A stretch of 62,918 nt of DNA from Candidatus Microgenomates bacterium (lineage in GTDB: Bacteria; Patescibacteriota; Microgenomatia; Levybacterales; UBA12049). Below, piece after piece: positions 2,581 through 58,539 of this stretch. Each line of letters opens with the position of its first letter. The stretch's first letter is position 1. The notes beneath the pieces were generated by a model, which was given only the letters and a program-made list of their open reading frames with translations, had not been told where the DNA came from and made no database searches. Location: positions 1-62,918 of the forward strand of contig JANWKV010000006.1 of assembly GCA_025451195.1 (NCBI GenBank), given 5' to 3'. A program made the translations under genes and the position numbers.

Positions 2581-3164
2581 AACTTATTTATTTTGTGATA
2601 AATACTTGGGATATTTTCTCTACCGTATTTTAAAGCTTTTGCCATCCAGATTAACTCACCGTATGCTCTTTTAATTCTGCGAATATATCCTTCATCTATT
2701 ATTGTCTCGTCTTTATTGAATAGGTTTTGCACCTGGGGAAAATAAACATCGGAAAATGTTACTACCATTCCCATTTCCCGGACAGTTGGGACAAGTTCTT
2801 CAATTGCACGTGCTCCTCCAAAAATTCCATTTGAAACTCCTGCAAAAGCAACAGGCTTATGAATGTAATTTTGCAACTCGCTATCTAACATTCGTTTTAA
2901 ACTCCCAGGGAAACTGTGATTATATTCCGGAGTTACAATAAAAAATCCATCTGCCCTTTTTGTTATCTCTGAATACCTTGGGTCTTTATTTTCCAGGTCA
3001 TTGCCGTCATATGGAAAATTGTAATTCTGAGGATCGACTAACTCAACTTCAATTTCCTCAATTTCCTGCCCTATTTTAGTAACAAGGTTTGCTACTTTTA
3101 TAGATTCCCTTTTGGGCCGCGTTGTGCCTAGCAAAATTGGAATAAATAATTTTTCCATAATCAT
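2577..3164 (-). CDS. NAD(P)H-dependent FMN reductase family protein
   Basis: LLGTTRPKRES.. N-terminus and FIVTPEYNHSFPGSLKRMLD signature. ATGA overlaps at both ends (2577-2580, 3161-3164). Confidence 0.8.
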   Translation of the reverse strand: MIMEKLFIPILLGTTRPKRESIKVANLVTKIGQEIEEIEVELVDPQNYNFPYDGNDLENKDPRYSEITKRADGFFIVTPEYNHSFPGSLKRMLDSELQNYIHKPVAFAGVSNGIFGGARAIEELVPTVREMGMVVTFSDVYFPQVQNLFNKDETIIDEGYIRRIKRAYGELIWMAKALKYGRENIPSIYHKINKL

Positions 3165-3712
3165 ATTTCATTCTGAACTTGTTTCAGAAGTTTTACCAAC
3201 TTTTCTCTCCAAAATGCCTGAATTTCTTTTGCTTGTTTTTGAGTTGGAATTTTTTCATGTCCAACTGCAACTTGTGATTTACCTTCTCCTTTTGAATAGA
3301 ACCCAACATCTACTCGAGTTTTCCCATCCGACCATTTTATTCGCATTGATTTATCTTTTGTTGCTTTTGTAATAGTAAATTTTTCCGAAAGCCACTGTTT
3401 TCTTTTTTTCCCATCTTCCCAAAAGCTGTAAAGAATATTTATAGGTACAGGAACTGTTTTTGATGCACCAACCTGAAACCCGCCAGAGTTTTGACTATCA
3501 ATTCTTAATCCTTTTGCTTTTTCGTATCCAACTGTTACCATTTGCGACCACCAACCGCTTTTTAAATAATTATCATTAACGAATTTTGCTATTTCTTTGT
3601 GAGGCTTTTGAAAAAGCATTTCTTTGTCTAAAATGACAATCCATTCGTCCCAGGTTTTACCGGTTGCCTTCTTAACCGATTCGGAAAACATTCCGTTTAC
3701 AATTTCTGCCAT
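3161..3712 (-). CDS. Hypothetical protein (helical N-terminal module with WWSQMVTVGYEKAKGLR motif, beta-rich C-terminal half)
   Basis: 183 aa ORF and first gene of the 3712->1227 overlap-coupled operon. Family not confidently recognised. Confidence 0.6.
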   Translation of the reverse strand: MAEIVNGMFSESVKKATGKTWDEWIVILDKEMLFQKPHKEIAKFVNDNYLKSGWWSQMVTVGYEKAKGLRIDSQNSGGFQVGASKTVPVPINILYSFWEDGKKRKQWLSEKFTITKATKDKSMRIKWSDGKTRVDVGFYSKGEGKSQVAVGHEKIPTQKQAKEIQAFWREKLVKLLKQVQNEI

Positions 3713-4934: not shown

Positions 4935-5336
4935 TTAACTAAATTTTTCATAGCCTAAAATAATAAAATAGACTAAAACAGGAAGATATAAAAATCCAAC
5001 AAAAGAAGAACTACTTTCCTGTGATGCACCTATTTGAGAAGAAATCTGTGTCACATAAAATATTGCCAACGTAAAAATTCCGGTCAAAATGCATGAATAT
5101 ACGTAGAGTATTACTCTCCAAACATTCCATTTATATTTTTTATACTCAATAATAATAACAATAAGAAAAATTGCAATTGGTGACAAAGAGAATATACCGG
5201 CAACCGGATCTTGAGCCGAATCAGAACTACTGCCTGTTGGAATAAGAGTAAAAAGAGTTAGAAACAAAAGCATAAAAGTCGAATAACCCCAAAGGGCGGT
5301 TCTCAAAAGCGCAAATTCCTTATTATTATTTTTCAT
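4935..5336 (-). CDS. Hypothetical integral membrane protein (about 4 TM)
   Basis: 133 aa hydrophobic ORF. No family recognised. Confidence 0.5.
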   Translation of the reverse strand: MKNNNKEFALLRTALWGYSTFMLLFLTLFTLIPTGSSSDSAQDPVAGIFSLSPIAIFLIVIIIEYKKYKWNVWRVILYVYSCILTGIFTLAIFYVTQISSQIGASQESSSSFVGFLYLPVLVYFIILGYEKFS

Positions 5337-5404
5337 CTTTATTAAGAGTATTCAAATGAAACAAAAAAGTAAAGTCAAATCATAAAGGTGTTTCCAAAAT
5401 TTAA

Positions 5405-5433
5405 TTGACAGTTTTATAAAAAAAATCTATGTT
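5405..5433 (+). promoter_or_regulatory. Sigma70-type promoter TTGACA-17-TATGTT
   Basis: TTGACA at 5405-5410, a 17-nt spacer, TATGTT at 5428-5433. The ATG at 5440 lies 6 nt downstream, so the mRNA is probably leaderless. Confidence 0.5.
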
Positions 5434-5439
5434 ATGGAT

Positions 5440-5574
5440 ATGATTGTCAAAAAGAAAGACGGATACTATGTTCTTTCCGGAAAAACTAAACGCAATTTAG
5501 GTGGTCCATATAAAACCAAACAAGAAGCGGCAAAAAGATTAAGACAAGTAGAATTTTTTAAACATCAAAAATGA
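5440..5574 (+). CDS. Small basic protein (44 aa; MIVKKKDGYYVLSGKTKRNLGGPYKTKQEAAKRLRQVEFFKHQK)
   Basis: Below the ORF-track size cutoff. A canonical promoter lies directly upstream. Its stop overlaps the next ATG as ATGA (5571-5574). An alternative start is ATG 5434. Confidence 0.5.
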   Translation: MIVKKKDGYYVLSGKTKRNLGGPYKTKQEAAKRLRQVEFFKHQK

Positions 5575-6788
5575 AAATAAGAAATATACTAATAATTGTC
5601 TTGATATTAATTGCGGGTATATATTTATTTTTTAAGACTCCTAAAACAACACATACTCCTCAAGCATTGCAAAATCAAACAACAACAGTTTTGTCTAATT
5701 CAACAGCAAAACAAAATACTCAATCTATAAAATATATTTCTGCAGGAGCGAGTCCAAATATCCCTCTAAATTTACCAGGTGATTTTACAATCCACATTTT
5801 TGCAACCGGTCTTGGAACTGCGCGCGATTTACAATTTAGCCCAGGTGGAACTCTTATAGTTTCTAATCCATCGGGAAATAGCGTCTATGCACTACCTGAT
5901 AAAAATAATGACGGAGTTGCGGATGAAATTAAACCTATCATCAGCGGGGAAAATCATGTTCACGGACTTGCTTTTTATAACGGCAAATTATTTATTGCGG
6001 ACGTAGATAAGGTTGTAAGGTATAACTGGAATGAAACAACTTTAACCGCGACAAAAGATAAAGTTCTTTTTACCCTTCCGGAAAATGAAGACCACAACAA
6101 CCGCTCATTGATTTTTACTTCGGACGGAAAATTATTTATTTCACTCGGGTCAACGTGTAATATTTGCCGTCAGTCACCAACTGTTGGCGGATCAGTATTA
6201 GCATCTGATGCTAATGGTACTCCTCCAAAAGTTTTTGCAACCGGACTCAGAAATTCTCCGTTTTTTGCAATTAATCCTAAGACTAAAGACATTTGGGCAA
6301 CAGAAATGGGAAGGGATTATTTAGGAGATAATACTCCCCCTGACGAAATTAATATTTTATATGAAAGCAAAAATTACGGCTGGCCTAATTGCTATGGAAA
6401 TAAAATTCATGATACAAATTTTGACGGAATAAATCCTGACAATTGTGGAAATACCGAACCTCCAATTTACCAAATCCCCGCACACTCTGCCCCACTCGGA
6501 TTAACTTTTATTAATTCTTCCCAGTTTCCAGAAGACTGGCAGGGCGATTTGCTTGTTGCCTACCACGGTTCTTGGAATCGGTCTGTTGCAACCGGTTATA
6601 AAGTTGTGCACCTAAAAGTAAATGGAAATACAATAACCGGCTCCGATGATTTCCTTACCGGGTTTTTACAAGGAACAACGCAAAATTCAAGTTTGGGCAG
6701 GCCTGTTGATTTAACTTTTGATAAGTATGGTAATCTTTATTTATCCGACGACAAGTCGGGAAATGTTTACATAATCCAGAAAAAATAG
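5571..6788 (+). CDS. PQQ-dependent sugar (glucose/sorbosone) dehydrogenase-like beta-propeller, membrane anchored
   Basis: N-terminal TM segment, then GLRNSPFFAINP..DIWATEMGRDYLGDNTPPDEINIL..GKNYGWPNCYG, typical of the soluble glucose dehydrogenase family. Confidence 0.8.
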   Translation: MKIRNILIIVLILIAGIYLFFKTPKTTHTPQALQNQTTTVLSNSTAKQNTQSIKYISAGASPNIPLNLPGDFTIHIFATGLGTARDLQFSPGGTLIVSNPSGNSVYALPDKNNDGVADEIKPIISGENHVHGLAFYNGKLFIADVDKVVRYNWNETTLTATKDKVLFTLPENEDHNNRSLIFTSDGKLFISLGSTCNICRQSPTVGGSVLASDANGTPPKVFATGLRNSPFFAINPKTKDIWATEMGRDYLGDNTPPDEINILYESKNYGWPNCYGNKIHDTNFDGINPDNCGNTEPPIYQIPAHSAPLGLTFINSSQFPEDWQGDLLVAYHGSWNRSVATGYKVVHLKVNGNTITGSDDFLTGFLQGTTQNSSLGRPVDLTFDKYGNLYLSDDKSGNVYIIQKK

Positions 6789-7774: not shown

Positions 7775-9548
<1,774 letters not shown>

Positions 9549-9842
9549 TTAACTTACAATCGCGAGTATGTCTTCCTGGCTAATTAGAGTCCATTCTTCC
9601 GCGCCAGCACCCATTTTTATTTCATTTCCTCCCCATTTTTTGTACATAACTTTGTCACCAATTTTTACAACCATTGGGTGCAAATCACCTTTTGGTCCTA
9701 TTTTCCCTTTACCAACTGCTTTTACAACTCCAATCTGTGGTTTTTCTTTTGCGCTGTCGGGTAAAATAATACCCGATGCAGTTTTTGTTTCTGCTTCCAG
9801 TGGGGCAACCAAAACATTATCAAATAACGGTGTAACTTTCAT
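9549..9842 (-). CDS. groES: Co-chaperonin GroES (Cpn10)
   Basis: MKVTPLFDNVLVAPLEAETKTASGIILPDSAKEKPQIGVVKAVG.. The start is set at ATG 9842; the longer ORF to 9875 runs through the CIRCE-like site. Confidence 0.93.
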   Translation of the reverse strand: MKVTPLFDNVLVAPLEAETKTASGIILPDSAKEKPQIGVVKAVGKGKIGPKGDLHPMVVKIGDKVMYKKWGGNEIKMGAGAEEWTLISQEDILAIVS

Positions 9843-9868: not shown

Positions 9869-9895
9869 AAATCACTCTTGCGAGATGATTGCTAA
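9869..9895 (-). promoter_or_regulatory. CIRCE-like inverted repeat (putative HrcA operator)
   Basis: The minus strand reads TTAGCAATC-N9-GAGTGATTT, against consensus TTAGCACTC-N9-GAGTGCTAA (14/18). It sits between the groES promoter and the start codon. Confidence 0.6.
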
Positions 9896-9924
9896 TTTAT
9901 ACCATTTTATATTTTTTTTTGCAA
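9896..9924 (-). promoter_or_regulatory. groESL promoter TTGCAA-17-TATAAA
   Basis: On the minus strand: TTGCAA (9919-9924), a 17-nt spacer ending in TGG, then TATAAA (9896-9901) directly abutting the CIRCE-like repeat. Confidence 0.6.
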
Positions 9925-10022
9925 TAACCTATAGAAAAGTGATTGAGTTTGAAAAGCTTGACAGAGTATATGTACTCCTTTAGCATAGACTTAAGCCCTT
10001 AATTTGGGCGGGTTTTGCTGTT

Positions 10023-10100
10023 TATACTACTCATACTTGATTTTGCAAAAAAAATTGATGAGATCAAAATCAAGTAATCGGGTACTATACACTATTTGCA
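10023..10100 (+). repeat. Conserved long-hairpin element, copy A
   Basis: TACTTGATTTTG (10034-10045) pairs with CAAAATCAAGTA (10065-10076) around a 19-nt loop. Conserved flanks ACTCA.. and ..ATCGGGTACTATACACTATTTGCA. Two further copies at 53113-53187 (+) and 20353-20430 (-). Confidence 0.75.
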
Positions 10101-10120
10101 AACCTGAGTTAGCTAAGTAT

Positions 10121-11329
10121 ATGAAACGACTTTTTATCCTGGGATTTGTTTTTGTACTTCTGTTGGCAATCCCGCTTACACTTTTTCTACTTGGGGAGCA
10201 AACAAAAACGAGAAGCGGCGCATCCCCTGCAACCAGATTATCATTTGTACCGGCAAGTAAAGATGTTAACGTTGGCGATGCATTTAGCCTTGATGTAAGC
10301 CTTAATCCAGGCACCAGTGGAACACCAAATGTTATTTCCTTCATTAACCTGAATATTCAGTACTCAAGCAATCTGGCACTTGATACAACCAAAGGAGATA
10401 ATAATAGCGGAATTACAATTCATCCTGTGAATGGTAAGGCATTGGTAATTCTAACTCCGCTTTCCGCTCCCCAATGTGGAGCCGCGACTTGCTTAGTTAC
10501 TTTGTCTTTAGGTGTAAACCCTGGAGATCAGGGAATTCAAACTGTTATTCCGGCTCTTATTACTCTTTATATGGTTGCGCAAAGCGCTTCGGATCCAAAC
10601 AACCAAAGTACAATTGATTTGAGTTCATCAAAAATTTATTCAACAGGCCAGAACGACCAACCAAGTAACAACGTATTAACAGGAGCGGATCCAGCTACAA
10701 TCAACGTTACTGCACCAAGCACAACTCCAAGTCCATCTGTTACCGATAGTCCTACTCCGGCAGGAGGAGAAACACCAACCGACACGCCTGTACCCGGTGG
10801 AGGAGGAAATCCAACGGATACACCAACCACTGTACCAGGATCTACAACAGGAACTCCTCAAGCAAGCGGAACACCCACCTGCACAAGTCTTGCTGTAGAT
10901 AATTTAAATGGTAATGCCCCTCTTACGGTTAACTTTACTACAACCGGAAACGATGCAGATGGTTCTGTCAGTAAAATAACCTACAATTTTGGAGACGGAC
11001 AAGTTCAGGATATAACAAGCGGCAGCGGCATTGGCACAACAGTTGTGAATTCTCAAGTAGCACATACTTATAATTCCGACGGAACATATACAGCAAGTTC
11101 TGCAATTACAGACGGTGGCGGCGCGGTAAGTGATCCTGGCGCTTGTACCCAAACAATTACAGTAGGCTCTGGCGGAGGCACTTCTACGCCAAGCGCAACA
11201 ATGATTGCAAAAGCACCAACCGCAACGCCAACAATTCCATCAAGCGGACCTGGTGAAACAATTGTTAATGTTGGTATACTAGGCGGAGTGTTGTCGGTAC
11301 TTGGCGCAATACTTATCTTTGCATTATAA
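10121..11329 (+). CDS. Secreted surface protein with Pro/Thr/Gly linker, PKD-like domain and C-terminal hydrophobic anchor
   Basis: Signal peptide MKRLFILGFVFVLLLAIPL. PKD-like NAPLTVNFTTTGNDADGSVSKITYNFGDGQ..AHTYNSDGTYT. C-terminus IPSSGPGE plus a TM segment. The start is moved from 10004 to ATG 10121. Confidence 0.75.
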   Translation: MKRLFILGFVFVLLLAIPLTLFLLGEQTKTRSGASPATRLSFVPASKDVNVGDAFSLDVSLNPGTSGTPNVISFINLNIQYSSNLALDTTKGDNNSGITIHPVNGKALVILTPLSAPQCGAATCLVTLSLGVNPGDQGIQTVIPALITLYMVAQSASDPNNQSTIDLSSSKIYSTGQNDQPSNNVLTGADPATINVTAPSTTPSPSVTDSPTPAGGETPTDTPVPGGGGNPTDTPTTVPGSTTGTPQASGTPTCTSLAVDNLNGNAPLTVNFTTTGNDADGSVSKITYNFGDGQVQDITSGSGIGTTVVNSQVAHTYNSDGTYTASSAITDGGGAVSDPGACTQTITVGSGGGTSTPSATMIAKAPTATPTIPSSGPGETIVNVGILGGVLSVLGAILIFAL

Positions 11330-11339
11330 TGCATCAACT

Positions 11340-11401
11340 AAATCACAAGCCCCAATGACCAATGTCCAACAAATTTTCGTTGGAACTTAATTTTGTGATT
11401 T
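11340..11401. terminator. Nested hairpins between convergent genes (putative bidirectional terminator)
   Basis: AAATCACAA (11340-11348) pairs with TTGTGATTT (11393-11401), enclosing CCAAC-N8-GTTGG (11366-11383). Confidence 0.4.
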
Positions 11402-11427
11402 GAGATTTGTAACTTGGGATTTGAGTT

Positions 11428-19087: not shown

Positions 19088-20355
19088 AAATAGCAATAAT
19101 TGGTGCCGGTTTTACCGGACTTGCCGCTGGTTTTACCCTTTCCAAAAAAGGACATAATGTTTTTTTATTTGAAAAAAGAGAAAATCCCGGCGGACTTGCT
19201 TTAGGTTTTAAAAAACCAAACTGGCAATGGAGTCTTGAAGAATATTACCATCACTGGTTTACAAACGACCACAACGTATTGTCTGTTGCGAAGGAAATAA
19301 AATACCCCGTTTTTATAAAACGGCCAAAAACATCTGTCTTTGTAGATAACGAAATTTTTCAACTTGATTCACCTTTTAAACTTCTTGAATTTCCAAAACT
19401 CAAACTTCTGGACAGATTAAGAATGGCAATGGTTTTGGGAATGCTTAAATCCGATCCTTTCTGGAAACCTTTTGAAAAAGTAAAAGCGGAAACGGTTTTA
19501 AAAAAAGCAATGGGAGAACGCGGCTATAAAAAAATCTGGGAACCTCAACTGTCCAATAAGTTTGGCGAATTTGCCAAAGATATATCTTTGGCCTGGTTTT
19601 GGGCAAGGGTTGTAAAAAGAACTTCAAGTCTTGCTTATCCAGAGGGCGGATTTTTGGAATTTGCAAAAAAATTTGCTGAAGAGATAGAAAAACTAAATGG
19701 CAAAATTATTTACGGTGCCAATGTAGCAGGCATTGAAAATGTTGAAGGAAAAATAAGTCTTGGAAAAGAATACGGATTATTTGACAAAGTTATTGTTACA
19801 CTTCCCGGATTTGCGTTTACAAAAATTTGCAAAAATTTGCCTGAGTCTTATATAAAAACCCTGACATCTCTGCAAGGCCTGGGAGCGCAAACTTTGGTGA
19901 TTAGGCTGTCAAATCAATTTTTAACAGATAATACCTATTGGCTTAGCATTTGCGAAAAAGCCAATGTAACTGCAATTGTTGAGCATACAAATTTTATGGA
20001 TAAAAAATATTATGACAATGAACATATTGTTTATTTAGGTAATTATTTGCCAAGAGGGCATAAGTATTTTTCCATGACTGAAAAAGATCTTCTTTTGGAA
20101 TTTGATCCGCTTTTAAAAAGACTTAATAAGGATTACAAAAAACATTTAATCGGCGCCGATCTTTTTACAACTCCTTTTGCACAACCTATTATTCCAATTA
20201 ATTATTCACGCATTATGCCCCCGATTAAAACTCCTATCAAAAACGTATACCTTGCAAATATACAACAGGTTTATCCCTGGGATAGGGGCACAAATTATGC
20301 AGTGGAATTGGGACAAAAAGTTGCAGATTATATATTCCTTAAAACAGATTTATAA
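19084..20355 (+). CDS. FAD-dependent oxidoreductase (amine-oxidase / protoporphyrinogen-oxidase-like fold)
   Basis: MKIAIIGAGFTGLAAGFTL..LFEKRENPGGLA dinucleotide-binding motif. ATGA overlap with the upstream gene. Confidence 0.8.
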   Translation: MKIAIIGAGFTGLAAGFTLSKKGHNVFLFEKRENPGGLALGFKKPNWQWSLEEYYHHWFTNDHNVLSVAKEIKYPVFIKRPKTSVFVDNEIFQLDSPFKLLEFPKLKLLDRLRMAMVLGMLKSDPFWKPFEKVKAETVLKKAMGERGYKKIWEPQLSNKFGEFAKDISLAWFWARVVKRTSSLAYPEGGFLEFAKKFAEEIEKLNGKIIYGANVAGIENVEGKISLGKEYGLFDKVIVTLPGFAFTKICKNLPESYIKTLTSLQGLGAQTLVIRLSNQFLTDNTYWLSICEKANVTAIVEHTNFMDKKYYDNEHIVYLGNYLPRGHKYFSMTEKDLLLEFDPLLKRLNKDYKKHLIGADLFTTPFAQPIIPINYSRIMPPIKTPIKNVYLANIQQVYPWDRGTNYAVELGQKVADYIFLKTDL

Positions 20356-20430
20356 ATAACATATAATACCCAATTACTTGCTTTTACAAATCATGGCACA
20401 AAATCAAGTATGAGTGGTATATTATTACTC
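20353..20430 (-). repeat. Conserved long-hairpin element, copy C (inverted orientation)
   Basis: TACTTGCTTTTA (20375-20386) and CAAAATCAAGTA (20399-20410) flank a 12-nt loop. The reverse complement aligns with copies A and B across both arms and flanks. It overlaps the stop codon at 20353-20355. Confidence 0.7.
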
Positions 20431-22068
20431 ATGAAAATGAATAAGAGAATAATTATTTCAGGCAGTACATTTCTTCTTATTACTTTTATCTGTATAGGTT
20501 TTATTTTGAGATTTTATAATATTGATTGGGGCGACCCTTTTTATTTTCATCCTGACGAGCGGAATGTTGCATCAAGCATAACTCAACTCATATTCCCAAC
20601 ACAATTTAATCCGCATTTTTTTGCATATGGATCGCTACCAATATATCTTGTTTTTTTCCTGGGTCTTATTACAAATTTTTTTAGGCAAACGACCGTTTCT
20701 TTCCAACAGGCTATTATTCTTATGCGCGTTTTTGCGGCTGTTCTATCGGTCCTTATTATTCCCTCAATTTTTTATATAACTAAAAAAACAACAGATAATA
20801 AAACAGCTGCTGTTTTTGCCGCAGGACTCTCTACTTTTAGCGTTGGATTTATTCAATTTGCCCATTTTGGAACTTTTGAAATGTGGCTAACTTTTTTAGG
20901 ACTATGGCTTTTTTATTTTTGTTACAAAATTACAAGATATGGTAATTTTACAGACACAATTGTCGCAGGAATCTTAAGCGGACTTTTAGTTGGTACAAAA
21001 ATATCGGGACTTGTTCTTGTACCAATACCGTTTATTTGTATTTTATATTTTGCATTTTTGAAAAAGAAATATTTTTCAATCGGGTTTCTTGAAAGCGCAA
21101 TGCATATTTTTACATATTGTTTTTTTCTTGGAGCAGTATATTTACTTACCAATCCGTATGTTTTGTTGGATACAAAATCATTTTTAGATAGCATGCATTA
21201 CGAAACAACAGTGGCAACAGGTGCTCTTCCTGTTTTTTATACTGGGGAATTTTTTAACGCGAAACCTGTACTTTTCCAACTCCTTCATGTCTATCCATTT
21301 TTGCTTAATCCTTTTGTTACCATAATATTTATTTTAAGTTTTTTTTATACAATTTTTATGGCAATAAAAACAAGAAAGCAGCATCTTGTTTTACTTCTTG
21401 TTTTCTTTGTTTTACTTTTTTTCTCCCAGGCAATTCTTTTTGTAAAATGGACAAGATATATGCTGCCTACTTTACCTTTTGCTTACCTTATTATTTCAAT
21501 CCCTCTTCTTGACGTAGTTAAAGGTAAATATATGTCTAAATTTACCGCTCTCTCTTTAACTGCTTGTTTTATCATTATTGGTTTAATTTACGGATTTCTA
21601 TATACATATATTGCATATGGTAGAGAAGATACCAGACTTTCCGCTTTGGATTTTGCAAAAACATCCGTACCTTTTCAGGCAAATATTTTAAGTGAAGTTT
21701 ATGATTTGGGAATTGTCCCATTTAACAGCAGTTATCCTCATATTTCGCTTTTTAATTTTTATGATTTGGATAACAACGGCGCTCTTTCGGACAATGATTT
21801 AAAAACGGCGTTGTCACAATCCGACTATATTATTTTACCAAGTCAAAGAATATTAAAACCAAGACTTTTAAACCCGGCAAAATTTCCAAGCGGGAGTATG
21901 TTTTATCAAAGTCTTTTTAACGGATCTTTAGGTTACCGGCAAATTTATCAAACGCCTTGCGATATTCTTTGTAGAATTGTTTATCTTAATGATCCTGTAT
22001 TTTCTTTGGAGGAAACCGCAACTGTTTTTGACCGGCCAACACTATACATATTTAAAAAAATACAATGA
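20431..22068 (+). CDS. GT-C fold membrane glycosyltransferase (ArnT/PMT_2, family 39-like)
   Basis: Polytopic. NIDWGDPFYFHPDERNVA loop motif after TM1. The start is moved to ATG 20431, outside the repeat element. Confidence 0.72.
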   Translation: MKMNKRIIISGSTFLLITFICIGFILRFYNIDWGDPFYFHPDERNVASSITQLIFPTQFNPHFFAYGSLPIYLVFFLGLITNFFRQTTVSFQQAIILMRVFAAVLSVLIIPSIFYITKKTTDNKTAAVFAAGLSTFSVGFIQFAHFGTFEMWLTFLGLWLFYFCYKITRYGNFTDTIVAGILSGLLVGTKISGLVLVPIPFICILYFAFLKKKYFSIGFLESAMHIFTYCFFLGAVYLLTNPYVLLDTKSFLDSMHYETTVATGALPVFYTGEFFNAKPVLFQLLHVYPFLLNPFVTIIFILSFFYTIFMAIKTRKQHLVLLLVFFVLLFFSQAILFVKWTRYMLPTLPFAYLIISIPLLDVVKGKYMSKFTALSLTACFIIIGLIYGFLYTYIAYGREDTRLSALDFAKTSVPFQANILSEVYDLGIVPFNSSYPHISLFNFYDLDNNGALSDNDLKTALSQSDYIILPSQRILKPRLLNPAKFPSGSMFYQSLFNGSLGYRQIYQTPCDILCRIVYLNDPVFSLEETATVFDRPTLYIFKKIQ

Positions 22069-23783
22069 TATTTAAAAGATATAAACTTTTACTTCTTTTG
22101 ATTATTATCCTGGGATTTATTGCGCGGGTGTTTGGATTTAATTGGGACAGCTTTTCACACCTGCATCCGGATGAAAGGGCGATTACTCTTTTTGCGCTTC
22201 CTTTGCATTTTCCAAATAGTATTTCCGAATTCCTTTCTCCTGCAAGCCCTTTAAATACCCATTTTTTTGCATATGGAAATTTTCCGGTATATTTTCTTAA
22301 AATAATCAGCATTATATGCGGGAATTTTAACCCTTTCCTAGCAACATATGACGGAATGAATCTTTTAGGAAGAATAACTTCCGCGCTTTTTGATACAGGG
22401 ACAATTATTGTTGTCTTTTTTACCGGGAGAAAATTATTCAATGAATATGTCGGAATTTTGGCTGCTTTTTTCTACTGTGTAAGCGTCATGGCTATTCAAA
22501 CAAGCCATTTTTACGCGGTTGACACGCTTCTTACATTTTTTGTAAGTCTTACACTTTTCCTGCTACTCTTGTTTTATACACACCCAACCAAAAAAAAGGC
22601 AATATTTATTGGCATATCTTTTGGGATGAGTGTTGCGACAAAAAATAGCGCGCTTGCTCTTTTGGCACCAATTTTTACAACGATTGGTATTGATTTTTTT
22701 CTTATTTTTCTTAAAAGCCCCCATAGAATTTCTATATGGGGACCGCATGTCCCAAAAGTTGTTAAAACTCTTTTAACAGATGGAATTATTATTGGAGTTT
22801 TTGCAGTTTGTGTTTTTCTTTTTTGGGAACCTTATTTTTTAATAGACAATGCAAATTTTTGGTCACAAACGCAACAACAGGCCCAGATGACACACGATGC
22901 ATTTACCTTTCCCTATACGTTGCAATATGTTGGAATAATTCCCTACTGGTATGAGTTAAAAAATATTTTTCTATGGGGGCAGGGGCCAATGATTGCCATT
23001 ATTTCTTTCATGGGGATAATATATGGCACGTGGATTTCTATTTTTAAGAAAAAATTTGATAAATGGGCAACAGAATTGATTATTTTAATTTTTTTCTGGT
23101 CATATTTTTTTGTTGTCGGACATTTTGCGATTGGATTTATGCGCTATATGTTGCCTGTTTATCCAATTTTGTGTTTGTTTGGAGGACTTTTATTTTGGGA
23201 ATCAATGATAACTTTATACGTTCACATTAAAAATAAATTTTTTGTTTTTACACTTTTTGTTGCGGTTTTTATAATGTTTCTCATCTGGCCAATTGCATTT
23301 TTGCAAATTTACACAAAACCAAATACCAGAATTTCTGCTTCTAAATGGATTAATACCGTTATTCCCGCGGGTGCAACACTAAGCATTGAGCATTGGGACG
23401 ACAGTCTTCCTCTATACGGCCAGGATAAATATAACATGCAAACTTTAACTTTGTATGATCCGGACACGCCGGAAAAATGGCAAACAATTAATCAGCAGTT
23501 GGCAAAAACAGACTATATAATAATCGCGTCCAACCGTCTTTATGTTCCGCTTCAAAAATTAACCGATTGTAAAAAATTGCCTCCTGACAGATGTTATACT
23601 CAAACTGCAAATTACTACAAAAAGCTTTTTGCAGGAGAGTTAAACTTTAATCTGGTTGCGGAATTTGCAGTTTATCCGACAATTCCTTTTTTTAATATTC
23701 CAATTGACGACCAGTCTGCGGACGAATCATTTACAGTTTACGACCATCCTAAAATAATGATTTTTCAGAAAAATACCTACTAG
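22065..23783 (+). CDS. GT-C fold membrane glycosyltransferase (ArnT/PMT_2-like), paralog
   Basis: ATGA overlap with the upstream gene. NWDSFSHLHPDERAIT loop motif parallels the upstream gene. 572 aa, polytopic. Confidence 0.72.
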   Translation: MIFKRYKLLLLLIIILGFIARVFGFNWDSFSHLHPDERAITLFALPLHFPNSISEFLSPASPLNTHFFAYGNFPVYFLKIISIICGNFNPFLATYDGMNLLGRITSALFDTGTIIVVFFTGRKLFNEYVGILAAFFYCVSVMAIQTSHFYAVDTLLTFFVSLTLFLLLLFYTHPTKKKAIFIGISFGMSVATKNSALALLAPIFTTIGIDFFLIFLKSPHRISIWGPHVPKVVKTLLTDGIIIGVFAVCVFLFWEPYFLIDNANFWSQTQQQAQMTHDAFTFPYTLQYVGIIPYWYELKNIFLWGQGPMIAIISFMGIIYGTWISIFKKKFDKWATELIILIFFWSYFFVVGHFAIGFMRYMLPVYPILCLFGGLLFWESMITLYVHIKNKFFVFTLFVAVFIMFLIWPIAFLQIYTKPNTRISASKWINTVIPAGATLSIEHWDDSLPLYGQDKYNMQTLTLYDPDTPEKWQTINQQLAKTDYIIIASNRLYVPLQKLTDCKKLPPDRCYTQTANYYKKLFAGELNFNLVAEFAVYPTIPFFNIPIDDQSADESFTVYDHPKIMIFQKNTY

Positions 23784-23794
23784 GTTTTGCATAA

Positions 23795-24508
23795 TTATTT
23801 TGAAACGTATTTTATTAACTCCCAAATAGTAGAAAGACCATACTCAACGGATCTTTTAAAATTAATGCTTGATGCATCGGGAAAATATTTTGTCGGAATT
23901 GCAATTTCTCCAATTCTTAGCTTATGAGATCTTGCCGAGATTAAAAATTGCTGGTCGAAAACAAAATCATCTGAAAATGTTTTAAACGGAATTTTTTCCA
24001 AAGCCCTTTTTGTATATGCTCTATAACCGGAATGATACTCGGACAAATTAAGTCCCAATGTAATATTTTCTATAAGGGTTAGCATTCTGTTAAATAAATA
24101 TTTGTAAATTGGCATCCCGCCACTTAGCGCTCCTTCTCTTGTTTGCATGCGGCTGCCAAGCATTACATCAAAATAACCTTGTTTGATGGGTTCTATTAAA
24201 AGAGGCAGAAGCTTTGGGTCATATTGGTAATCGGGATGAAGCATAACTACAATATCTGCTTTTTCCTTTAAGGCTTCTGTATAGCATGTTTTCTGATTGC
24301 CTCCATAACCCTTGTTTTTTGGGTGGACAATTGTTTTAAGCCCTAATTTTTTAGAAACATTTACTGTTTTGTCACGGCTGCAATCGTCAACAACAATAAC
24401 GCTGTCAAAACTGCCTTTTGGAATTTCCTTATACGTTTTTTCAATTGTTTTCTCCGCATTGTAAGCAGGCATTACAACAACGACTTTTTGTTTTTTCATC
24501 AGTTGCAT
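23795..24508 (-). CDS. GT2 family glycosyltransferase (polyprenyl-phosphate sugar synthase-like, DPM1/ArnC type)
   Basis: VVVMPAYNAEKTIEKTYKEIP..VIVVDDCSRDKT..; a short soluble GT-A domain. Confidence 0.88.
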   Translation of the reverse strand: MQLMKKQKVVVVMPAYNAEKTIEKTYKEIPKGSFDSVIVVDDCSRDKTVNVSKKLGLKTIVHPKNKGYGGNQKTCYTEALKEKADIVVMLHPDYQYDPKLLPLLIEPIKQGYFDVMLGSRMQTREGALSGGMPIYKYLFNRMLTLIENITLGLNLSEYHSGYRAYTKRALEKIPFKTFSDDFVFDQQFLISARSHKLRIGEIAIPTKYFPDASSINFKRSVEYGLSTIWELIKYVSK

Positions 24509-24541
24509 GGTATCTCAAACTTATGCAATTATCAATAATGT

Positions 24542-26128
24542 ATGGAGTTTTTTATGATTTTAGGCTTACTAAGAAAATATTTTAATATTATTCTAATATT
24601 TTTGGTAATTACTTTAGGATTTTCACTTAGAATATATAATTTAGGTAATAATCCAGCGGGATTTTTCTGTGATGAGGCTTCTATTGGTTATAACGCCTAT
24701 ACAATTATAACTTCAGGGGCAGACGAATATGGAACGCCGTTTCCTATTTTTTTTCGCGCATTTGGAGAATATAAAAGCCCAATAGAAATTTATAGTACCG
24801 CACCTTTTGTTGGTATCTTTGGATTGAGTGAATTTTCAACTCGGTTACCATCTACCATATATGGGATTCTCTCAATTATAGCTATTTATTTTCTTGCAAA
24901 AGAAATGTTTATAAGGCACAGAGAAGATAATTTTATTGCAATCTTTTCAATGTTTTTTCTTGCAATCTCGCCTTGGTCTATTCAATTTAGCAGAGTTTCC
25001 CTAGAAGGCTTAATGGCATTTGTATTCTTTACAACGTTTGGTTTATTTCTTTTCTTAAAAGCACAAAGCAAACCAAATCTCTTCATTTTATCCGTTATTT
25101 CTTTTACATTGGCTCTATATAGTTACTTTCCTGCAAGAATTTTTATTCCCCTCTTTTGTCTTGGACTTATCGGATTACATTTTAAATTCTTTCTGCAGTA
25201 TAAAAAACAAGTGCTTTACAGCGCAATACTGCTTTTACTGTTATTAATACCTTTTTTAATGAATAATCTTTCTCTTGACGGCTTAGCAAGATGGCAGCAG
25301 GTCAGTGTTTTCTACCATCCTCCTAAAAATGAGTCTATAGTTCAGCACATTACTTCTGATTATTTTCAACATTTTTCCGCTGATTTTCTTTTCTTAAAAG
25401 GCGACATAGATATGTCTGGCCAATTTATTACCAGACATTCTGTGAGAGGAATTGGAGAATTATATTTATTTCAACTCCCTTTAATCCTTGCGGGAATTTT
25501 TCATTTGTTTAAAAAAAGAAAGAAGCTTTTCTATATTTTTTTACTCTGGATCATTTTATACCCTACAGGGAGCATGTTCACCCTTGACAATACTCCTCAG
25601 GCAACGAGATCAATTATAGGAGTTGCACCTTTTCAAATATTAACCGCTGTTGGCCTTGAATACCTACTCGAATTATTTATAAAACTTGATCTTGTTGCAA
25701 AAACTAAATATATATTGCATCTCACATTTACTTTTATAATTGGTCTTTTAATAGTCCTTTCGTTTACAAGTTATCTTATTTTATATTTCTCTTCTTATCC
25801 AAATTATTCGTCTGATTTTTGGGGATGGCAATATGGGGCAAGAGACATAGTCCAGTATTTTGCAACAAATGAGCAGAAATATGATGAAGAAATTATGGCA
25901 CCGGAATTTAATGCTCCGGAAATCTTCTTTAAATTTTATGCACCAAATGATTGTGTAAAATGCAAAGTCGGCCTACCGGATAAGCTATATGATCCTAATA
26001 AAAAGCAGCTTTTTGCACTTACGCCTGATTATTTAAAAAATAATCCGGAGTGGAATTTTGAACCTCTTGAAAAAATTTATTATCCTAATGGCACCATTGC
26101 CTTTCTTATTGGTGAAATAGTACAATAA
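24542..26128 (+). CDS. GT-C fold membrane glycosyltransferase (ArnT/PMT_2-like), third paralog
   Basis: NNPAGFFCDEASIGYNAYTI first-loop DE motif. 528 aa, polytopic. Confidence 0.72.
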   Translation: MEFFMILGLLRKYFNIILIFLVITLGFSLRIYNLGNNPAGFFCDEASIGYNAYTIITSGADEYGTPFPIFFRAFGEYKSPIEIYSTAPFVGIFGLSEFSTRLPSTIYGILSIIAIYFLAKEMFIRHREDNFIAIFSMFFLAISPWSIQFSRVSLEGLMAFVFFTTFGLFLFLKAQSKPNLFILSVISFTLALYSYFPARIFIPLFCLGLIGLHFKFFLQYKKQVLYSAILLLLLLIPFLMNNLSLDGLARWQQVSVFYHPPKNESIVQHITSDYFQHFSADFLFLKGDIDMSGQFITRHSVRGIGELYLFQLPLILAGIFHLFKKRKKLFYIFLLWIILYPTGSMFTLDNTPQATRSIIGVAPFQILTAVGLEYLLELFIKLDLVAKTKYILHLTFTFIIGLLIVLSFTSYLILYFSSYPNYSSDFWGWQYGARDIVQYFATNEQKYDEEIMAPEFNAPEIFFKFYAPNDCVKCKVGLPDKLYDPNKKQLFALTPDYLKNNPEWNFEPLEKIYYPNGTIAFLIGEIVQ

Positions 26129-33777: not shown

Positions 33778-34875
33778 ATGTGGCAAGATATTACTGAAAA
33801 AGAAAAAAATGAATTTAACGATATAGCAATTCATCCATTGCAATCTTACGAATGGGGAGAGTTTAGAAAAAAAACAGGAATAAAAGTAGTAAGAAGAGGT
33901 TTTTATGATGGGAAAAGGTTAAAAGAAATTTTCCAACTAACAATTCATAAAATTCCCTATACGAAATTTGCCATTGGCTATTTGCCAAAAGGGACAACGC
34001 CTTCAAAAGAATTAATTCTGGAACTCAAAAAAATCGGCAAAGAGAATAATTGTATTTTTATTCAGCTGGAACCAAACATTGTAAATGATAAAGGATTAAG
34101 GATAGGCGATAAACAAGAAAAAAATTTATCTTTAATCATTAATCATTTATCATTAATCCCATCTGCTCATCCTCTTTTTACAAAATATACATTCCAACTT
34201 GATTTAATAAGAAGTGAAGAAGAATTATTAAAACAAATGAGTCAGAAAACCCGTTATAACATTAAAGTTGCGCAAAAACATAACGTAATGATTAAAGAAG
34301 AAAATTCGGAAAAAGCTTTTAAAGAATACCTTAAATTAACTAAAGAAACTACAAACCGCCAGGGATTTTTTGCGCATACCCCTGCATATCATAGAAAAAT
34401 GTGGGAAACCCTAAAGATTAATGATAAAAGATTAAGGATAAAGGATAAACAAATTAATCATTCATCATTAATCATTAATCCTTTTAATTCTCTTTCCGCC
34501 CATCTTTTTGTTGCATATTACAAAAATATTGCATTAACAACGTGGATTTTATTTATTTTTAAAGACACTCTTTATTATCCATACGGTGCATCATCAAGTG
34601 AGCATCGTGAAACAATGGCTAGTAACCTTATGATGTGGGAAACAATTAAATATGGGAAAAAATTAGGGCTTAAAACTTTTGACATGTGGGGAAGTTTGGG
34701 TGAAAACCCAAATCCCAAAGACCCGTGGTTTGGATTCCATAGGTTTAAACAGGGTTATGGCCCGAAGCTTGTTGAATTTGTAGGAAGCTATGATTTAATT
34801 ATTAATCCACTTCTCTACCAAGGATATAAAATTGCCGATAAACTCAGAGGAATATTTCTTTCTCTAAAAAGATAA
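33778..34875 (+). CDS. FemAB-family peptidoglycan interpeptide-bridge aminoacyltransferase, carrying two in-frame repeat insertions
   Basis: ..LYYPYGASSSEHRETMASNLMMWETIKYGKKLGLKTFDMWG..FHRFKQGYGPK is typical of FemAB proteins. Repeats at 34084-34159 and 34420-34481. Confidence 0.78.
   Translation: MWQDITEKEKNEFNDIAIHPLQSYEWGEFRKKTGIKVVRRGFYDGKRLKEIFQLTIHKIPYTKFAIGYLPKGTTPSKELILELKKIGKENNCIFIQLEPNIVNDKGLRIGDKQEKNLSLIINHLSLIPSAHPLFTKYTFQLDLIRSEEELLKQMSQKTRYNIKVAQKHNVMIKEENSEKAFKEYLKLTKETTNRQGFFAHTPAYHRKMWETLKINDKRLRIKDKQINHSSLIINPFNSLSAHLFVAYYKNIALTTWILFIFKDTLYYPYGASSSEHRETMASNLMMWETIKYGKKLGLKTFDMWGSLGENPNPKDPWFGFHRFKQGYGPKLVEFVGSYDLIINPLLYQGYKIADKLRGIFLSLKR
34084..34159. repeat. AT-rich imperfect palindromic repeat inside the FemAB CDS, copy 1
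   Basis: AATGATAAAGGATTAAGGATAGGCGATAAAC..TTTATCTTTAATCATTAATCATTTATCATTAATCC. Translated in frame as NDKGLRIGDKQEKNLSLIINHLSLI. Confidence 0.65.
34420..34481. repeat. AT-rich imperfect palindromic repeat inside the FemAB CDS, copy 2
   Basis: AATGATAAAAGATTAAGGATAAAGGATAAACAAATTAATCATTCATCATTAATCATTAATCC. Translated in frame as NDKRLRIKDKQINHSSLIIN. Confidence 0.65.
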
Positions 34876-36165: not shown

Positions 36166-36471
36166 TTAATAGACAACTTTACCGATTATTTGACTTTTTT
36201 TTATCCACCCAAATATTCTGCTGTCTGTACTTTCTTTATTATTATCACCAAGAACGTAGAGTAAATCCTTTTTTATTTTATTGATTCTTTTGATTATTAA
36301 ATTTCCGTTTCTCGGATCTTTTAGAACAATAACATCTTGAACATTTAGAGAACATAAGAACCATTTCTTTTGCACTAAAACTTTTCCTTTATTTTTATAT
36401 TTAGGATTCATACTGTTCCCGAAAATTTTAAACACCACAATCGGTGAAATACAAAATAAAAAATCAAACAT
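36166..36471 (-). CDS. sodX: Ni-SOD maturation protease (SodX, S26 signal-peptidase-like)
   Basis: GNSMNP catalytic-Ser motif and VLGDNNKESTDSRIFGWI. Located immediately downstream of sodN. Confidence 0.72.
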   Translation of the reverse strand: MFDFLFCISPIVVFKIFGNSMNPKYKNKGKVLVQKKWFLCSLNVQDVIVLKDPRNGNLIIKRINKIKKDLLYVLGDNNKESTDSRIFGWIKKSQIIGKVVY

Positions 36472-36536
36472 AGTTTTTTTATTTTAACAAAACTAACAAA
36501 ACATTTGATTATTTGTTTATTGAATTAATGGATTAT

Positions 36537-37007
36537 TTACGGGGTATAAGTAACAATCTCACCTTTTGTAGGGTATAAAGATGGAACTCTTTTTGGTGTA
36601 ACATTTTTTGTTTTATAAAAAATTTCTGAAATTTGTAAAACTTTATCAACCAAATCCTGGGCTTTTTGTATGTCTACGGCTTGACGGGTTGCAATTGAAA
36701 GCTTTACTGCATCAGCCAAAAGACCTTTAAGATTGGGAAATTTATCAAAATGTTCGGGCTTAAAATAATCATTTTCCAAAGTGCCTAACTCTTCTTCCAC
36801 TTTTCCACCATGCTCTTCTTTAACATGGACAACTCTTGCAATATCGTGCATAGAGTCTTTTTCGCCTAAAAGTTGAGTCATTCTAAGTACAGTATGTGCG
36901 GCAATTTGTGCAGGCGTAGGATCATAAATTCCACACGGAATATCACAATGAGCATAAACTGCTTTGAATGGAAGGTTATTAACTAGAAACTGAATTACTC
37001 TTTTCAT
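36537..37007 (-). CDS. sodN: Nickel superoxide dismutase precursor
   Basis: A propeptide is followed by HCDIPCGIYDP, the Ni-hook motif (His-Cys-x-x-Pro-Cys-Gly-x-Tyr). Confidence 0.9.
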   Translation of the reverse strand: MKRVIQFLVNNLPFKAVYAHCDIPCGIYDPTPAQIAAHTVLRMTQLLGEKDSMHDIARVVHVKEEHGGKVEEELGTLENDYFKPEHFDKFPNLKGLLADAVKLSIATRQAVDIQKAQDLVDKVLQISEIFYKTKNVTPKRVPSLYPTKGEIVTYTP

Positions 37008-53112: not shown

Positions 53113-53187
53113 TATATACCACTCATACTTGATTTTGTCCACCATAGGGCACAAAATCAAGTAATCGGGTATTATACACTATTTACA
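53113..53187 (+). repeat. Conserved long-hairpin element, copy B
   Basis: TACTTGATTTTG (53126-53137) pairs with CAAAATCAAGTA (53152-53163) around a 14-nt loop. The flanks ATATACCACTCA.. and ..ATCGGGTATTATACACTATTTACA match copies A and C. Confidence 0.75.
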
Positions 53188-53213
53188 ATGATTAGCTTAA
53201 AGAGTATAGAAAA

Positions 53214-56454: not shown

Positions 56455-56588
56455 ATTTGTCAAGACCAATATGAGTTGTTTGCCACAAGAAATGTAATCT
56501 AGGTCATTGACAAATTTTTAAAAAAGTCGTTGACTAAAATTAGGGGTAAATTTTTTCCCCTTTTGTGTATTTGTATGACATAAATATT

Positions 56589-58415
56589 ATGATCAAATTT
56601 GTCGGAACTGCCCTACAAGACAAACAAACGCTCCTTTTTTATTGTCAAAAAGAAGGTAATGAAATTTTCTTCAAAGCAGTCGGAAGCCAAAATGGACTCG
56701 AATTTTCAGATAAATGTAACTACATATTTGTCTTTGATGAATCTCAAAAAGAAGAACAAAACTTTAATTGGAAGAGTTTTAGGATCGCCCGCCAACATGA
56801 TCAATTTCTTCTTACATATAAATTAGACTCCGAAAAAGACGCGTCTTTATTTGGCGCATTATCCGCAGATTTAATCAGATGGCAAAAAATTGGAAAAATT
56901 GATGAAATTAAAGAAACCGGTACGGTTGTTCCGCTGTTCCAGTTTAACAATAATTATGTAATGTATTTTGGGGAAAAGGATATAAAAATTGCCTCTTCAG
57001 AAGATTTAAAAACATGGAAAACGGAAACAAAAGCCGTCTTAAAATCCAGAAAAGCAAGTTTTGACAGCGGAAATCTTGAAGTCGCAAATGCTTATGTCTT
57101 AAATAACAACATACTATTAATATACTATGTAAAAAAAGAGAAAGACGGAAAAACTTTATACGATGTGGGGGCTGCAATATTTGATAAATCTGATCCGACA
57201 AAACCCATATGGCGCAGTGAAGAGGCAATTTTTGAACACCCGGAAGAAATGGAAAATGAAAAAATGCAGCCTTTTGGAAGCGCAATAAGTGGTGACCGGC
57301 TTATTTTATATTGGTTAATAGGAGAAAATAATTTATTCGCAGTTTCAGTGCCAATCCCAACAACAAGTACCGGCTTAAAACATAAAGTGTTTACCCATAT
57401 AGTTAAAAAATCGGAAAAAAATCCGATTATCGGACCAAACCCTGCTCACCCTTGGGAGTCACGCGCGGCTTTTAACAGCGCCGCAATTTTAGATAACGGA
57501 AAAGTCCATTTTGTATATAGAGCACTTGGAGATAAAGATCTTTCTGTTTTGGGATATGCAGTTAGTAGTGATGGAGTAAATATTGATGAAAGATCTACCG
57601 AACCGATTTATATTCCCCGTGAACCGTTTGAGACACCCGGCGGAAACGCGTTTTCCAGCTTTGCACAACATTTTGCGTCTGGAGGAGGTTATGGGGGGAT
57701 TGAAGATCCAAGAATTACCAGACTCGAAGATAAAATTTATCTGACCTATGTGGCATTTGACGGAGCAAATCCGCCAAGGGTTGCTATGTCTTCTATTCAC
57801 ATTGATGATTTTAGAAAAAAAAACTGGGACAAATGGGAAAAGCCAAAATTAATTTCCGCACCGGGAATGGTTAACAAAAGCGCTGTTATTTTTCCAAGAA
57901 AAATAAGAGGAAAATACGTTATGATGCATAGGGTTTATCCGAATATTCTTATCGATTATTTGGATAATCTGAACTTTAAAGAATATCTTAAAGGCCATTA
58001 TTTTATTCCTCCTAGGAAAAAATTCTGGGACAGCAAGAAAGTAGGAGCAGGTGCACCGCCAATGGAGACAAACGACGGATGGCTTTTAATTTATCAGTCT
58101 GTTGGACACCAGGATTCAAGCAGATATAAGATTGGAGCTATGATGTTGGACCGGGATAACCCGGAAAAAGTTTTGTACAGGACACACACCGCGATTATAG
58201 AACCGAGTGAAAGGTACGAAAATGAAGGGTTTAAAGCTGGAGTTGTATATCCGTGCGGAGCTGTAATTAAAGATAATTCGTTGCATGTATATTATGGCGG
58301 AGCAGACACTGTGGTTTGTGCAGCCAAAGCGGACTTGAATACTTTCTTAAATGAAATGAAAAGAAACAGGGAACCAAAACTAACAAAAGTAACAAGCAGA
58401 CAGTTTGCAAATTAA
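56589..58415 (+). CDS. GH130-like glycosidase/phosphorylase with an additional divergent N-terminal beta-propeller-like half
   Basis: The C-terminal half has NPIIGPNPAHPWESRAAFNSAAI..VHFVYRA..GGIEDPRITRLEDKIYLTYVAFDG..MMLDRDNPEKV..VVYPCGAV..YYGGADT, typical of the GH130 (DUF377) fold. The start is ATG 56589 or GTG 56565. Confidence 0.72.
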   Translation: MIKFVGTALQDKQTLLFYCQKEGNEIFFKAVGSQNGLEFSDKCNYIFVFDESQKEEQNFNWKSFRIARQHDQFLLTYKLDSEKDASLFGALSADLIRWQKIGKIDEIKETGTVVPLFQFNNNYVMYFGEKDIKIASSEDLKTWKTETKAVLKSRKASFDSGNLEVANAYVLNNNILLIYYVKKEKDGKTLYDVGAAIFDKSDPTKPIWRSEEAIFEHPEEMENEKMQPFGSAISGDRLILYWLIGENNLFAVSVPIPTTSTGLKHKVFTHIVKKSEKNPIIGPNPAHPWESRAAFNSAAILDNGKVHFVYRALGDKDLSVLGYAVSSDGVNIDERSTEPIYIPREPFETPGGNAFSSFAQHFASGGGYGGIEDPRITRLEDKIYLTYVAFDGANPPRVAMSSIHIDDFRKKNWDKWEKPKLISAPGMVNKSAVIFPRKIRGKYVMMHRVYPNILIDYLDNLNFKEYLKGHYFIPPRKKFWDSKKVGAGAPPMETNDGWLLIYQSVGHQDSSRYKIGAMMLDRDNPEKVLYRTHTAIIEPSERYENEGFKAGVVYPCGAVIKDNSLHVYYGGADTVVCAAKADLNTFLNEMKRNREPKLTKVTSRQFAN

Positions 58416-58539
58416 AAATTTAAGTTAAAAAATAAAAGTTAAAAGTTAAGGTACTTTCTTTTTATAAACCTCAGTAAAAGTTTTATAAATAAAATACTTT
58501 AATTTTTCATTTTTAATTTTAAATTTTTAACTTACTATT
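58416..58539. repeat. 124-nt AT-rich imperfect palindromic intercistronic spacer (AAGTTAAAA-type arms)
   Basis: The left arm TTAAGTTAAAAAATAAAAGTTAAAAGTTAAGG faces the right arm CTTTAATTTTTCATTTTTAATTTTAAATTTTTAACTTAC. The right arm is near-identical to 9520-9556. Confidence 0.6.

Follow-up and report, generated by a model that had tools for sequence, protein, structure and literature searches.

An 87-95-nt hairpin repeat dispersed in a Patescibacteria contig is probably a TA-targeting, non-autonomous miniature transposable element (MITE)

The stretch of DNA analyzed here (the window, 62,918 nt) is a Patescibacteria (CPR) contig with a GC content of 35.6% and 5.6% intergenic DNA. Its GroEL has at most 80% identity to any of 5.8 billion proteins, the best matches belonging to groundwater Patescibacteria and Levybacteria-type MAGs. 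Pfam comparison of the 64 window ORFs identified housekeeping genes together with many envelope genes, including MurJ, PilN/PilO, three PMT_2 glycosyltransferases, LytR and FemAB. The three PMT_2-type genes lie at 20431-26128 along with a GT2 gene and a DUF2298 gene, and two tandem GH130-family phosphorylase genes occupy 56565-60468. At 36166-37007, a nickel superoxide dismutase gene (Sod_Ni) adjoins a short S26/S24-type peptidase gene, which we take to be the usual sodN-sodX maturation pair. A 69-nt inverted repeat composed of AATGAT/AAGGAT-type short repeats (34090-34158 and 34416-34484; 74% complementary, arms 257 nt apart) is situated inside a FemAB-like ORF (33778-34875), between its two Pfam-matched parts. 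Two AT-rich palindromic spacers, the 100-nt groES-groEL spacer (9457-9560; 63-71 nt long in the related loci L002 and L008, and 1 nt in L055) and the spacer between the two GH130 genes (58409-58538), share 35-44-nt stretches with 80-89% identity, which could be a low-complexity coincidence or a second spacer repeat.

Three copies of a hairpin-forming repeat, designated A, B and C, are found in the window. Their parts, with the flanking TA dinucleotides included, and the promoter preceding copy A are:

9958-9986, plus strand: sigma-70-like promoter of the PKD gene, TTGACA-N17-TAGCAT, outside the element and conserved in relatives
10023-10121, plus strand: copy A with flanking TA at 10023-24 and 10120-21; element proper 10025-10119 (95 nt)
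10023-10045, plus strand: left arm of copy A, TA followed by TACTACTCATACTTGATTTTG; stem half TACTTGATTTTG at 10034-10045
10046-10064, plus strand: variable loop of copy A, 19 nt
10065-10089, plus strand: right arm of copy A, CAAAATCAAGTAATCGGGTACTATA, which repeats the left arm imperfectly in inverted orientation
10090-10121, plus strand: tail of copy A, CACTATTTGCAAACCTGAGTTAGCTAAGTA followed by TA; unpaired, inside the repeat unit, matching copy D (see below) at 29/32 positions
53115-53208, plus strand: copy B with flanking TA at 53115-16 and 53207-08; element proper 53117-53206 (90 nt)
53115-53137, 53138-53151, 53152-53176 and 53177-53208, plus strand: arm, loop, arm and tail of copy B
20329 or 20331 to 20421, minus strand: copy C, inverted; arm 20421-20399, loop 20398-20387, arm 20386-20362, tail from 20361 to 20331 or 20329

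Copy A lies in the 245-nt spacer between groES and a PKD-domain gene, and its second flanking TA straddles the start of that gene, combining the T at -1 with the A (+1) of the ATG. Copy B starts 26 nt past the stop codon of a DUF5671 gene and ends 5 nt upstream of the ATG (53214) of a beta-lactamase-family gene. The 75-nt gap between an FAD-oxidoreductase gene and a PMT_2 glycosyltransferase gene consists entirely of copy C. The oxidoreductase ORF extends into the tail of this copy, from which its final 8 codons and stop are derived (DYIFLKTDL, then stop). Owing to a (TA)3 run, the tail end of copy C is ambiguous by 2 nt; our preferred reading places the element at 20333-20419 (87 nt), with TA at 20331-32 and 20420-21. 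The longest PMT_2 ORF at this site starts at ATG 20410 inside copy C, and comparison with the related locus L049 suggests that the true start is 20437, or possibly 20431. Upstream of groES, a CIRCE-like inverted repeat, ATCACTC-N9-GATTGCTAA, is present at 9870-9897, and ATCACTT..AAGTGA(T/C)TGCTAA is found at the same position in L002, L008 and L055; it is probably a variant of the HrcA-type heat-shock operator.

An earlier reading of the window, made from the sequence only, had placed three copies at these sites, and inspection, arm counts and a covariance model all agree with it. The left-arm 17-mer ACTCATACTTGATTTTG occurs exactly three times in the window (shuffle mean 0.41) and the right-arm 25-mer three times at ≤3 mismatches (shuffle mean 0.00), counts that were reached in 0/100 dinucleotide shuffles, and the three copies are not explained by chance. 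We also derived a covariance model from the three copies and searched all 62,918 nt of the window with it, filters off. The copies themselves obtained 90-95 bits and no other copy emerged, the remaining sequence reaching ≤16 bits except for the same palindromes on the opposite strand. Syntenic housekeeping genes surround the copies, which are 10 and 33 kb apart.

A hairpin-only pattern scanned over 185,579 species-representative genomes gave 27 matches, 26 of which the covariance model identified as unrelated AT-rich hairpins (≤31 bits). The remaining match (L040) is a fourth copy, D, in GCA_025449795.1 (Candidatus Paceibacterota CRAIB_MAG45), scoring 78 bits with all flanks present and showing 86% identity to copy A over 100 nt, to window position 10121 (blastn). 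Copy D is located between the 23S-5S rRNA genes and rpsA in about 930 nt of ORF-free DNA, with no start codon adjacent; in the surrounding locus (L046), this DNA without a credible ORF extends from ORF 5191-5787 to rpsA. In viral contigs, the five matches to the hairpin-only pattern were all unrelated AT-rich hairpins (≤31 bits), and viral scans with the arm and with the flank yielded nothing related. The exact arm-plus-flank pattern had 0 matches in GTDB representative genomes and one in JGI metagenomes, which lay inside an ORF and was rejected as chance. Plasmid and phage collections contained no match to the element, and in one sequencing run holding the copy D contig no contig fell on it. 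The known copies number four, three in the window and one in GCA_025449795.1.

The DNA compared from these two assemblies has no genes in common, and a GroEL match considered as a bridge between the two genomes was rejected, as it came from another assembly. A 26-nt sequence, GATTTGAGATTTGTAACTTGGGATTT, located between the convergent PKD and lepA genes (window 11397-11422), recurs with one difference (T in the window, A there) in the 23S rRNA gene span of GCA_025449795.1, and the motifs AATCACAAG and CAATGACCAA nearby are likewise common to window 11341-11425 and L046 4150-4220; this second shared sequence may represent another small repeat family or close kinship of the organisms. Within L046 284-6715, the 23S rRNA gene in question has a span of 4.4 kb with a LAGLIDADG endonuclease ORF at 2763-3257, and thus contains intron-type insertions.

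The repeat unit had initially been described as about 75 nt long, ending near 10100. Blastn against copy D and the four-copy alignment gave instead 87-95 nt, to 10119-10121 (the A of ATG) in copy A. All four copies begin with TAC directly after a TA and finish with (G/A)TA directly before another TA. Because the alignment shares TATAC...(G/A)TATA but no similarity further out, the boundaries can be set inside the two outer TA dinucleotides, and on this alignment the repeat unit is TAC...(G/A)TA with TA on either side; the left flank reads (T/A)TA in all copies. From left to right, the unit comprises the left arm (21 nt), the loop (12-19 nt), the inverted right arm (25 nt) and the tail (29-30 nt), amounting to 95 nt in A, 92 nt in D, 90 nt in B and 87 nt in C. 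The inverted pair (23/25 nt, about 20 matches) is asymmetrically placed, its right member being internal with the 30-nt tail beyond, and the right and left termini of the unit match over only ~3-7 nt (TAC...GTA plus partial TCAT). Outer ATACC/GGTAT pairing and the TTAGCT..AAG..TAT similarity of A and B, which falls within the longer unit, both reported previously, are present in the alignment, and the loop lengths of 19, 14 and 12 nt were also borne out. The loops had been called unrelated, which is not wholly the case: the A and D loops agree at 12/19 positions and those of B and C share a CCAT core. These two loose subfamilies, A+D and B+C, fit descent from different source copies. No reading frame common to the copies was seen, and the only ATG within A falls in the variable loop.

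As first described, the 12-bp stem TACTTGATTTTG/CAAAATCAAGTA is perfect in copies A and B and carries one A-G mismatch and one G-U pair in copy C. The hairpins fold with -18.4 to -21.5 kcal/mol and z-scores of -2.0 to -3.9, the A and B folds being more stable than 200/200 shuffles; for the transcribed strand of copy C, the fold has z = -1.1. Conservation along the unit is uneven. Across the six copy pairs, identity amounts to 22-23/23 in the left arm, 20-24/25 in the right arm, 20-29 of 32-36 in the tail and 6-12 of 15-19 in the loop, and the arms are 92-100% identical between copies compared with 30-60% for the loops (arms versus rest of the unit, p = 1.6e-5 for the single pair B-C). In the four-copy alignment, compensatory change was found at 0/17 predicted stem pairs, and beyond the stem the conserved arms extend over another ~11 bases that pair weakly or not at all. 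Since all variation is one-sided or pair-breaking, the arms are conserved as sequence, a pattern that looks like that of transposase-binding inverted repeats and not like the signature of RNA structure. In keeping with the initial statement that no known RNA family was recognized, an Rfam search at the gathering threshold matched only a tRNA at 220-304 in the window, and permissive scans of A and B returned only sub-threshold miRNA and sRNA noise.

The sequence-only reading had suggested a comparison of orthologous loci, and relatives are free of the element at sites A, C and D, the three sites compared, all in lineages other than the species itself. The order PKD gene, groES, groEL is kept in four related lineages (L002-type, L008-type, L055 and L056), and a model search found no element at this locus in L002-L013, L055 and L056. 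In L002, L008 and L055, the PKD gene is preceded by the promoter TTGACA-N18-TACGAT, with the ATG 17-18 nt past the -10 box; the corresponding distance in the window is 134 nt, with 36 nt and then the element. As the conserved promoter lies upstream, copy A falls within the PKD 5' leader. L002, L008 and L055 each have a T immediately before the ATG, creating a TA exactly at the junction between this T and the ATG, where copy A is flanked in the window.

At site C, the element is missing from L049, the closest relative (79% amino-acid identity in the oxidoreductase versus ~65% for others), and from L050. The oxidoreductase stop overlaps the next start (ATGA) in L049, and the two genes are separated by a 13-nt gap in L050, which has the same synteny (S20, PilO, Big_13, oxidoreductase, PMT, PMT); the intergenic distance is -4 to +13 nt in the relatives versus 75 nt in the window. 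Excision of 89 nt (the 87-nt element and one TA) restores the gene end GAT TAT ATT ATT ACT CAT GAA AAT GAA TAA, which aligns codon by codon with its L049 counterpart, CTA ATT TCT AAA GAA AAC GCA TGA, and fits the C-terminal pattern A-(D/N)-(H/Y)-I-(T/L)-K of the orthologues. An alternative excision of 91 nt, allowed by the 2-nt boundary ambiguity, would create an ATGA overlap; this model was replaced by the 89-nt model after the codon-level comparison with orthologues, and an insertion at C is clear under either length. Site D was empty in two rpsA relatives. Absence from these syntenic sites in relatives shows the copies to be insertions.

All three window copies end ≤10 nt from a start codon, an arrangement for which a rough estimate based on pre-insertion spacer lengths gives a chance of a few percent, leaving room for target preference or selection. 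The proposed association with start codons of envelope genes stands for these three copies but does not extend to copy D, with its ORF-free surroundings. Because so little of the window is intergenic, the association with start codons is largely forced, and because the window is rich in envelope and glycan functions, envelope-related neighbors of all three window copies are unsurprising; the link to envelope genes is probably incidental. A sigma-70-like promoter scan picked up the conserved promoter upstream of the PKD gene but found no promoter toward the downstream gene inside A or B and no more than expected by chance around C, with one opposite-strand match overlapping the last four bases of B. 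The outward-facing -10-like boxes noted earlier are present as letters, but they lack a -35 partner, and no promoter-like match is common to the copies. Terminator-like sites were absent from the three scanned regions, and no T-run was seen after either arm.

We consider the element to be a non-autonomous, TA-targeting bacterial MITE of 87-95 nt, of the Correia/RUP/ERIC kind, with a probability of roughly 0.7. Bacterial MITEs are defined as elements of <200 bp with inverted repeats, TA termini, target-site duplication and stem-loop transcripts (PMC2229807). Here, all four copies are small and non-coding, they are dispersed and absent from orthologous sites in relatives, they form a stable stem-loop, and TA is found on both sides in 4/4 copies, the empty sites for comparison being those of other lineages. 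A miniature mobile element was among the options initially raised, and what was observed speaks for it: repetition at dispersed, non-homologous loci, one of them in another assembly, with defined unit boundaries, absence at syntenic sites, TA flanks, and a conservation that is far stronger in the arms than in the interior and shows no covariation.

According to this MITE reading, a transposase encoded elsewhere would recognize the arms and act in trans, inserting the element at TA dinucleotides with duplication of the TA; in view of the TA flanks, an enzyme of the IS630/Tc1-mariner type would be the obvious candidate. The arms would stay near-identical while the interior drifts, because only lineages with intact arms would keep moving. 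Folding would follow from two imperfect inverted arms of ~23-25 nt lying almost back to back, the hairpin being a by-product of two inverted binding sites 12-19 nt apart. Once inserted, copies would be carried on neighboring transcripts, A in the PKD 5' leader and B and C between co-directional genes, where the hairpin may have incidental effects on mRNA stability or translation. Several points weigh against the MITE reading or qualify it. The element is asymmetric, with the strong inverted repeat internal on the right, which would be unusual if cleavage took place at the arm ends, and the TA flanks may belong to the element rather than be a duplication. The copies known are only four, and those in the window are all close to start codons. 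No parent IS with these arms was found, and no transposase, integrase or recombinase domain was detected by Pfam in the 64 window ORFs, nor did a transposase appear in the other loci compared.

The main mechanistic rival to a MITE is single-strand hairpin transposition, in which an ssDNA hairpin element, REP/REPIN-RAYT or IS200/IS605-derived, is moved by a Y1 (HUH) transposase and the flanking TA is a target or cleavage motif. The best-conserved feature, a perfect 12-bp stem with a free loop, is in line with this, as are the asymmetry (an unpaired tail and a hairpin close to one end also characterize IS200/IS605 ends), the left flank that always reads (T/A)TA, and the putative status of the TA duplication. 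We nevertheless regard this mechanism as unlikely, given that a GTAG-type REP head is lacking and the window encodes neither RAYT nor TnpA, that the arms run ~11 nt past the stem as an imperfect inverted repeat resembling double-stranded TIRs, that TA occurs on both sides of every copy, and that the 89-nt excision restores the reading frame at C. REP/RAYT membership as such was rejected for a unit of 87-95 nt that starts with TAC, with no Y1 transposase domain among the window ORFs. A cis-acting RNA hairpin selected as an mRNA stabilizer, RNase III site or translational coupling device, and spread by duplication owing to its usefulness to envelope genes, is a somewhat poorer prospect still. 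The window copies do lie in probably transcribed spacers, 0-10 nt from start codons, they fold with -18 to -21 kcal/mol (z -2.0 to -3.9) with conserved stems and free loops, and there is precedent for such effects in ERIC and Correia elements (PMC2229807). Against this, the structured-RNA interpretation that had been offered receives no support, with compensatory change at none of 17 pairs; copy C simply loses a pair (A-G), its G-U corresponds to a C-A mismatch in the strand that is probably transcribed, the fold of that strand is weak, and the copy is inverted relative to A and B and to transcription. Outside the paired region, in the flanks and the tail, it is sequence and not structure that is conserved, copy D is near no ORF start and Rfam has no match; an effect on RNA would, moreover, be a secondary use of a mobile element and not an alternative origin.

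Less probable again is a palindromic operator or divergent promoter pair that serves a transcription factor or alternative sigma factor of an envelope regulon. Such a site would have inverted half-sites conserved in sequence, as seen here, and the neighboring genes (PKD surface protein, beta-lactamase-family protein, PMT_2 glycosyltransferase), the outward-pointing -10-like boxes TGGTATAT and GGGTATTAT, and an OmpR-type two-component pair 1.2 kb from copy B could be accommodated. But the half-site spacing ranges from 12 to 19 nt, a 7-nt variation that a dimeric binder would not tolerate; the sequence-only reading had set both of its options against a simple protein operator. In addition, the corresponding promoters of four related genomes lack the element and keep their own TTGACA-N18-TACGAT, copy C is inserted at an operon junction where the genes of relatives overlap, promoter-like matches are no commoner than in shuffles with the -10-like boxes unpartnered, and copy D has no adjacent gene. 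Several other identities were rejected: an integron attC, as there is no RYYYAAC on the left, GTTRRRY fits only the copy D tail and the copies are 10 and 33 kb apart; a composite transposon or an invertible segment bounded by A and C, which are in opposite orientation, as the intervening 10 kb is syntenic with relatives; and DNA-uptake-sequence pairs, as neither arm occurs alone in the window. Arms that are identical across two assemblies, window copies ending so close to start codons, and the position of copy A between T and ATG raise a more speculative idea, to which we give little credence, namely that the element is more than a passive MITE and is kept by Patescibacteria for its effect as a portable expression module. 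It could act through a protein binding the arms or through a hairpin bringing the upstream stop next to the downstream start; a formal possibility is an extended -10-like box, TGGTATATT, 7 nt before the ATG at 20431, driving a leaderless mRNA. If this were true, insertion would rewire envelope-gene expression in genomes with very few regulators. Horizontal movement of the element between distant Patescibacteria lineages is also a possibility.

Patescibacteria (CPR) genomes are tiny, tightly packed and regarded as poor in mobile DNA, and full-text searches of the literature found no earlier description of MITEs in Patescibacteria. The element would, on its sequence, be a MITE of established type in a phylum without such a description, leaving the general understanding of MITEs unchanged; with three copies in 63 kb, even a genome of this sort would be home to active small non-autonomous transposons. 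At copy C, the insertion split a gene pair that overlaps in the closest relative and rewrote a protein C-terminus, and copy A came to lie precisely at a start codon. Insertions of this kind mislead gene callers, which may over-extend the PMT_2 gene next to copy C, and inflate apparent conserved regulatory motifs; they could also serve as strain markers and flag a transposase encoded elsewhere.

Among known systems, REP sequences and REPINs reportedly resemble the present element in their extragenic location and in a hairpin whose inverted halves are better conserved than the spacer, as Bertels and Rainey are said to have described in 2011. REPs are 20-40 nt long, with a GTAG head, no target duplication and an accompanying RAYT gene; the present element differs in size, and neither the GTAG head nor a RAYT gene was seen with it. 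Its closest analogues are RUP, which depends on IS630-Spn1, Correia/NEMIS and ERIC. RUP of Streptococcus pneumoniae is similar in being ~107 bp long, intergenic, directed to a TA target, without a coding frame and highly conserved between copies (PMC2229807), but its inverted repeats match a known IS630 member, whereas the one pointer from the present element to IS630 is its TA flanks. The Correia/NEMIS elements of Neisseria differ in being full-length palindromes with symmetric ends, compared with the 30-nt unpaired tail outside the right arm here; no sequence similarity was seen, the host phylum is different, and the IHF site and RNase III processing are Correia features. They are alike in being non-coding and ~100-155 bp long, with ~24-bp terminal inverted repeats and TA termini, and in lying beside genes, with which they are co-transcribed, as long hairpins with putative outward promoters (PMC2229807). 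ERIC (IRU) of enterobacteria, at 127 bp, is paired over its whole length and unrelated in sequence, but has TA termini, a target-site duplication and short 7-bp inverted repeats at its outer ends, and resides in transcribed spacers, where its orientation matters for mRNA stability (PMC2229807).
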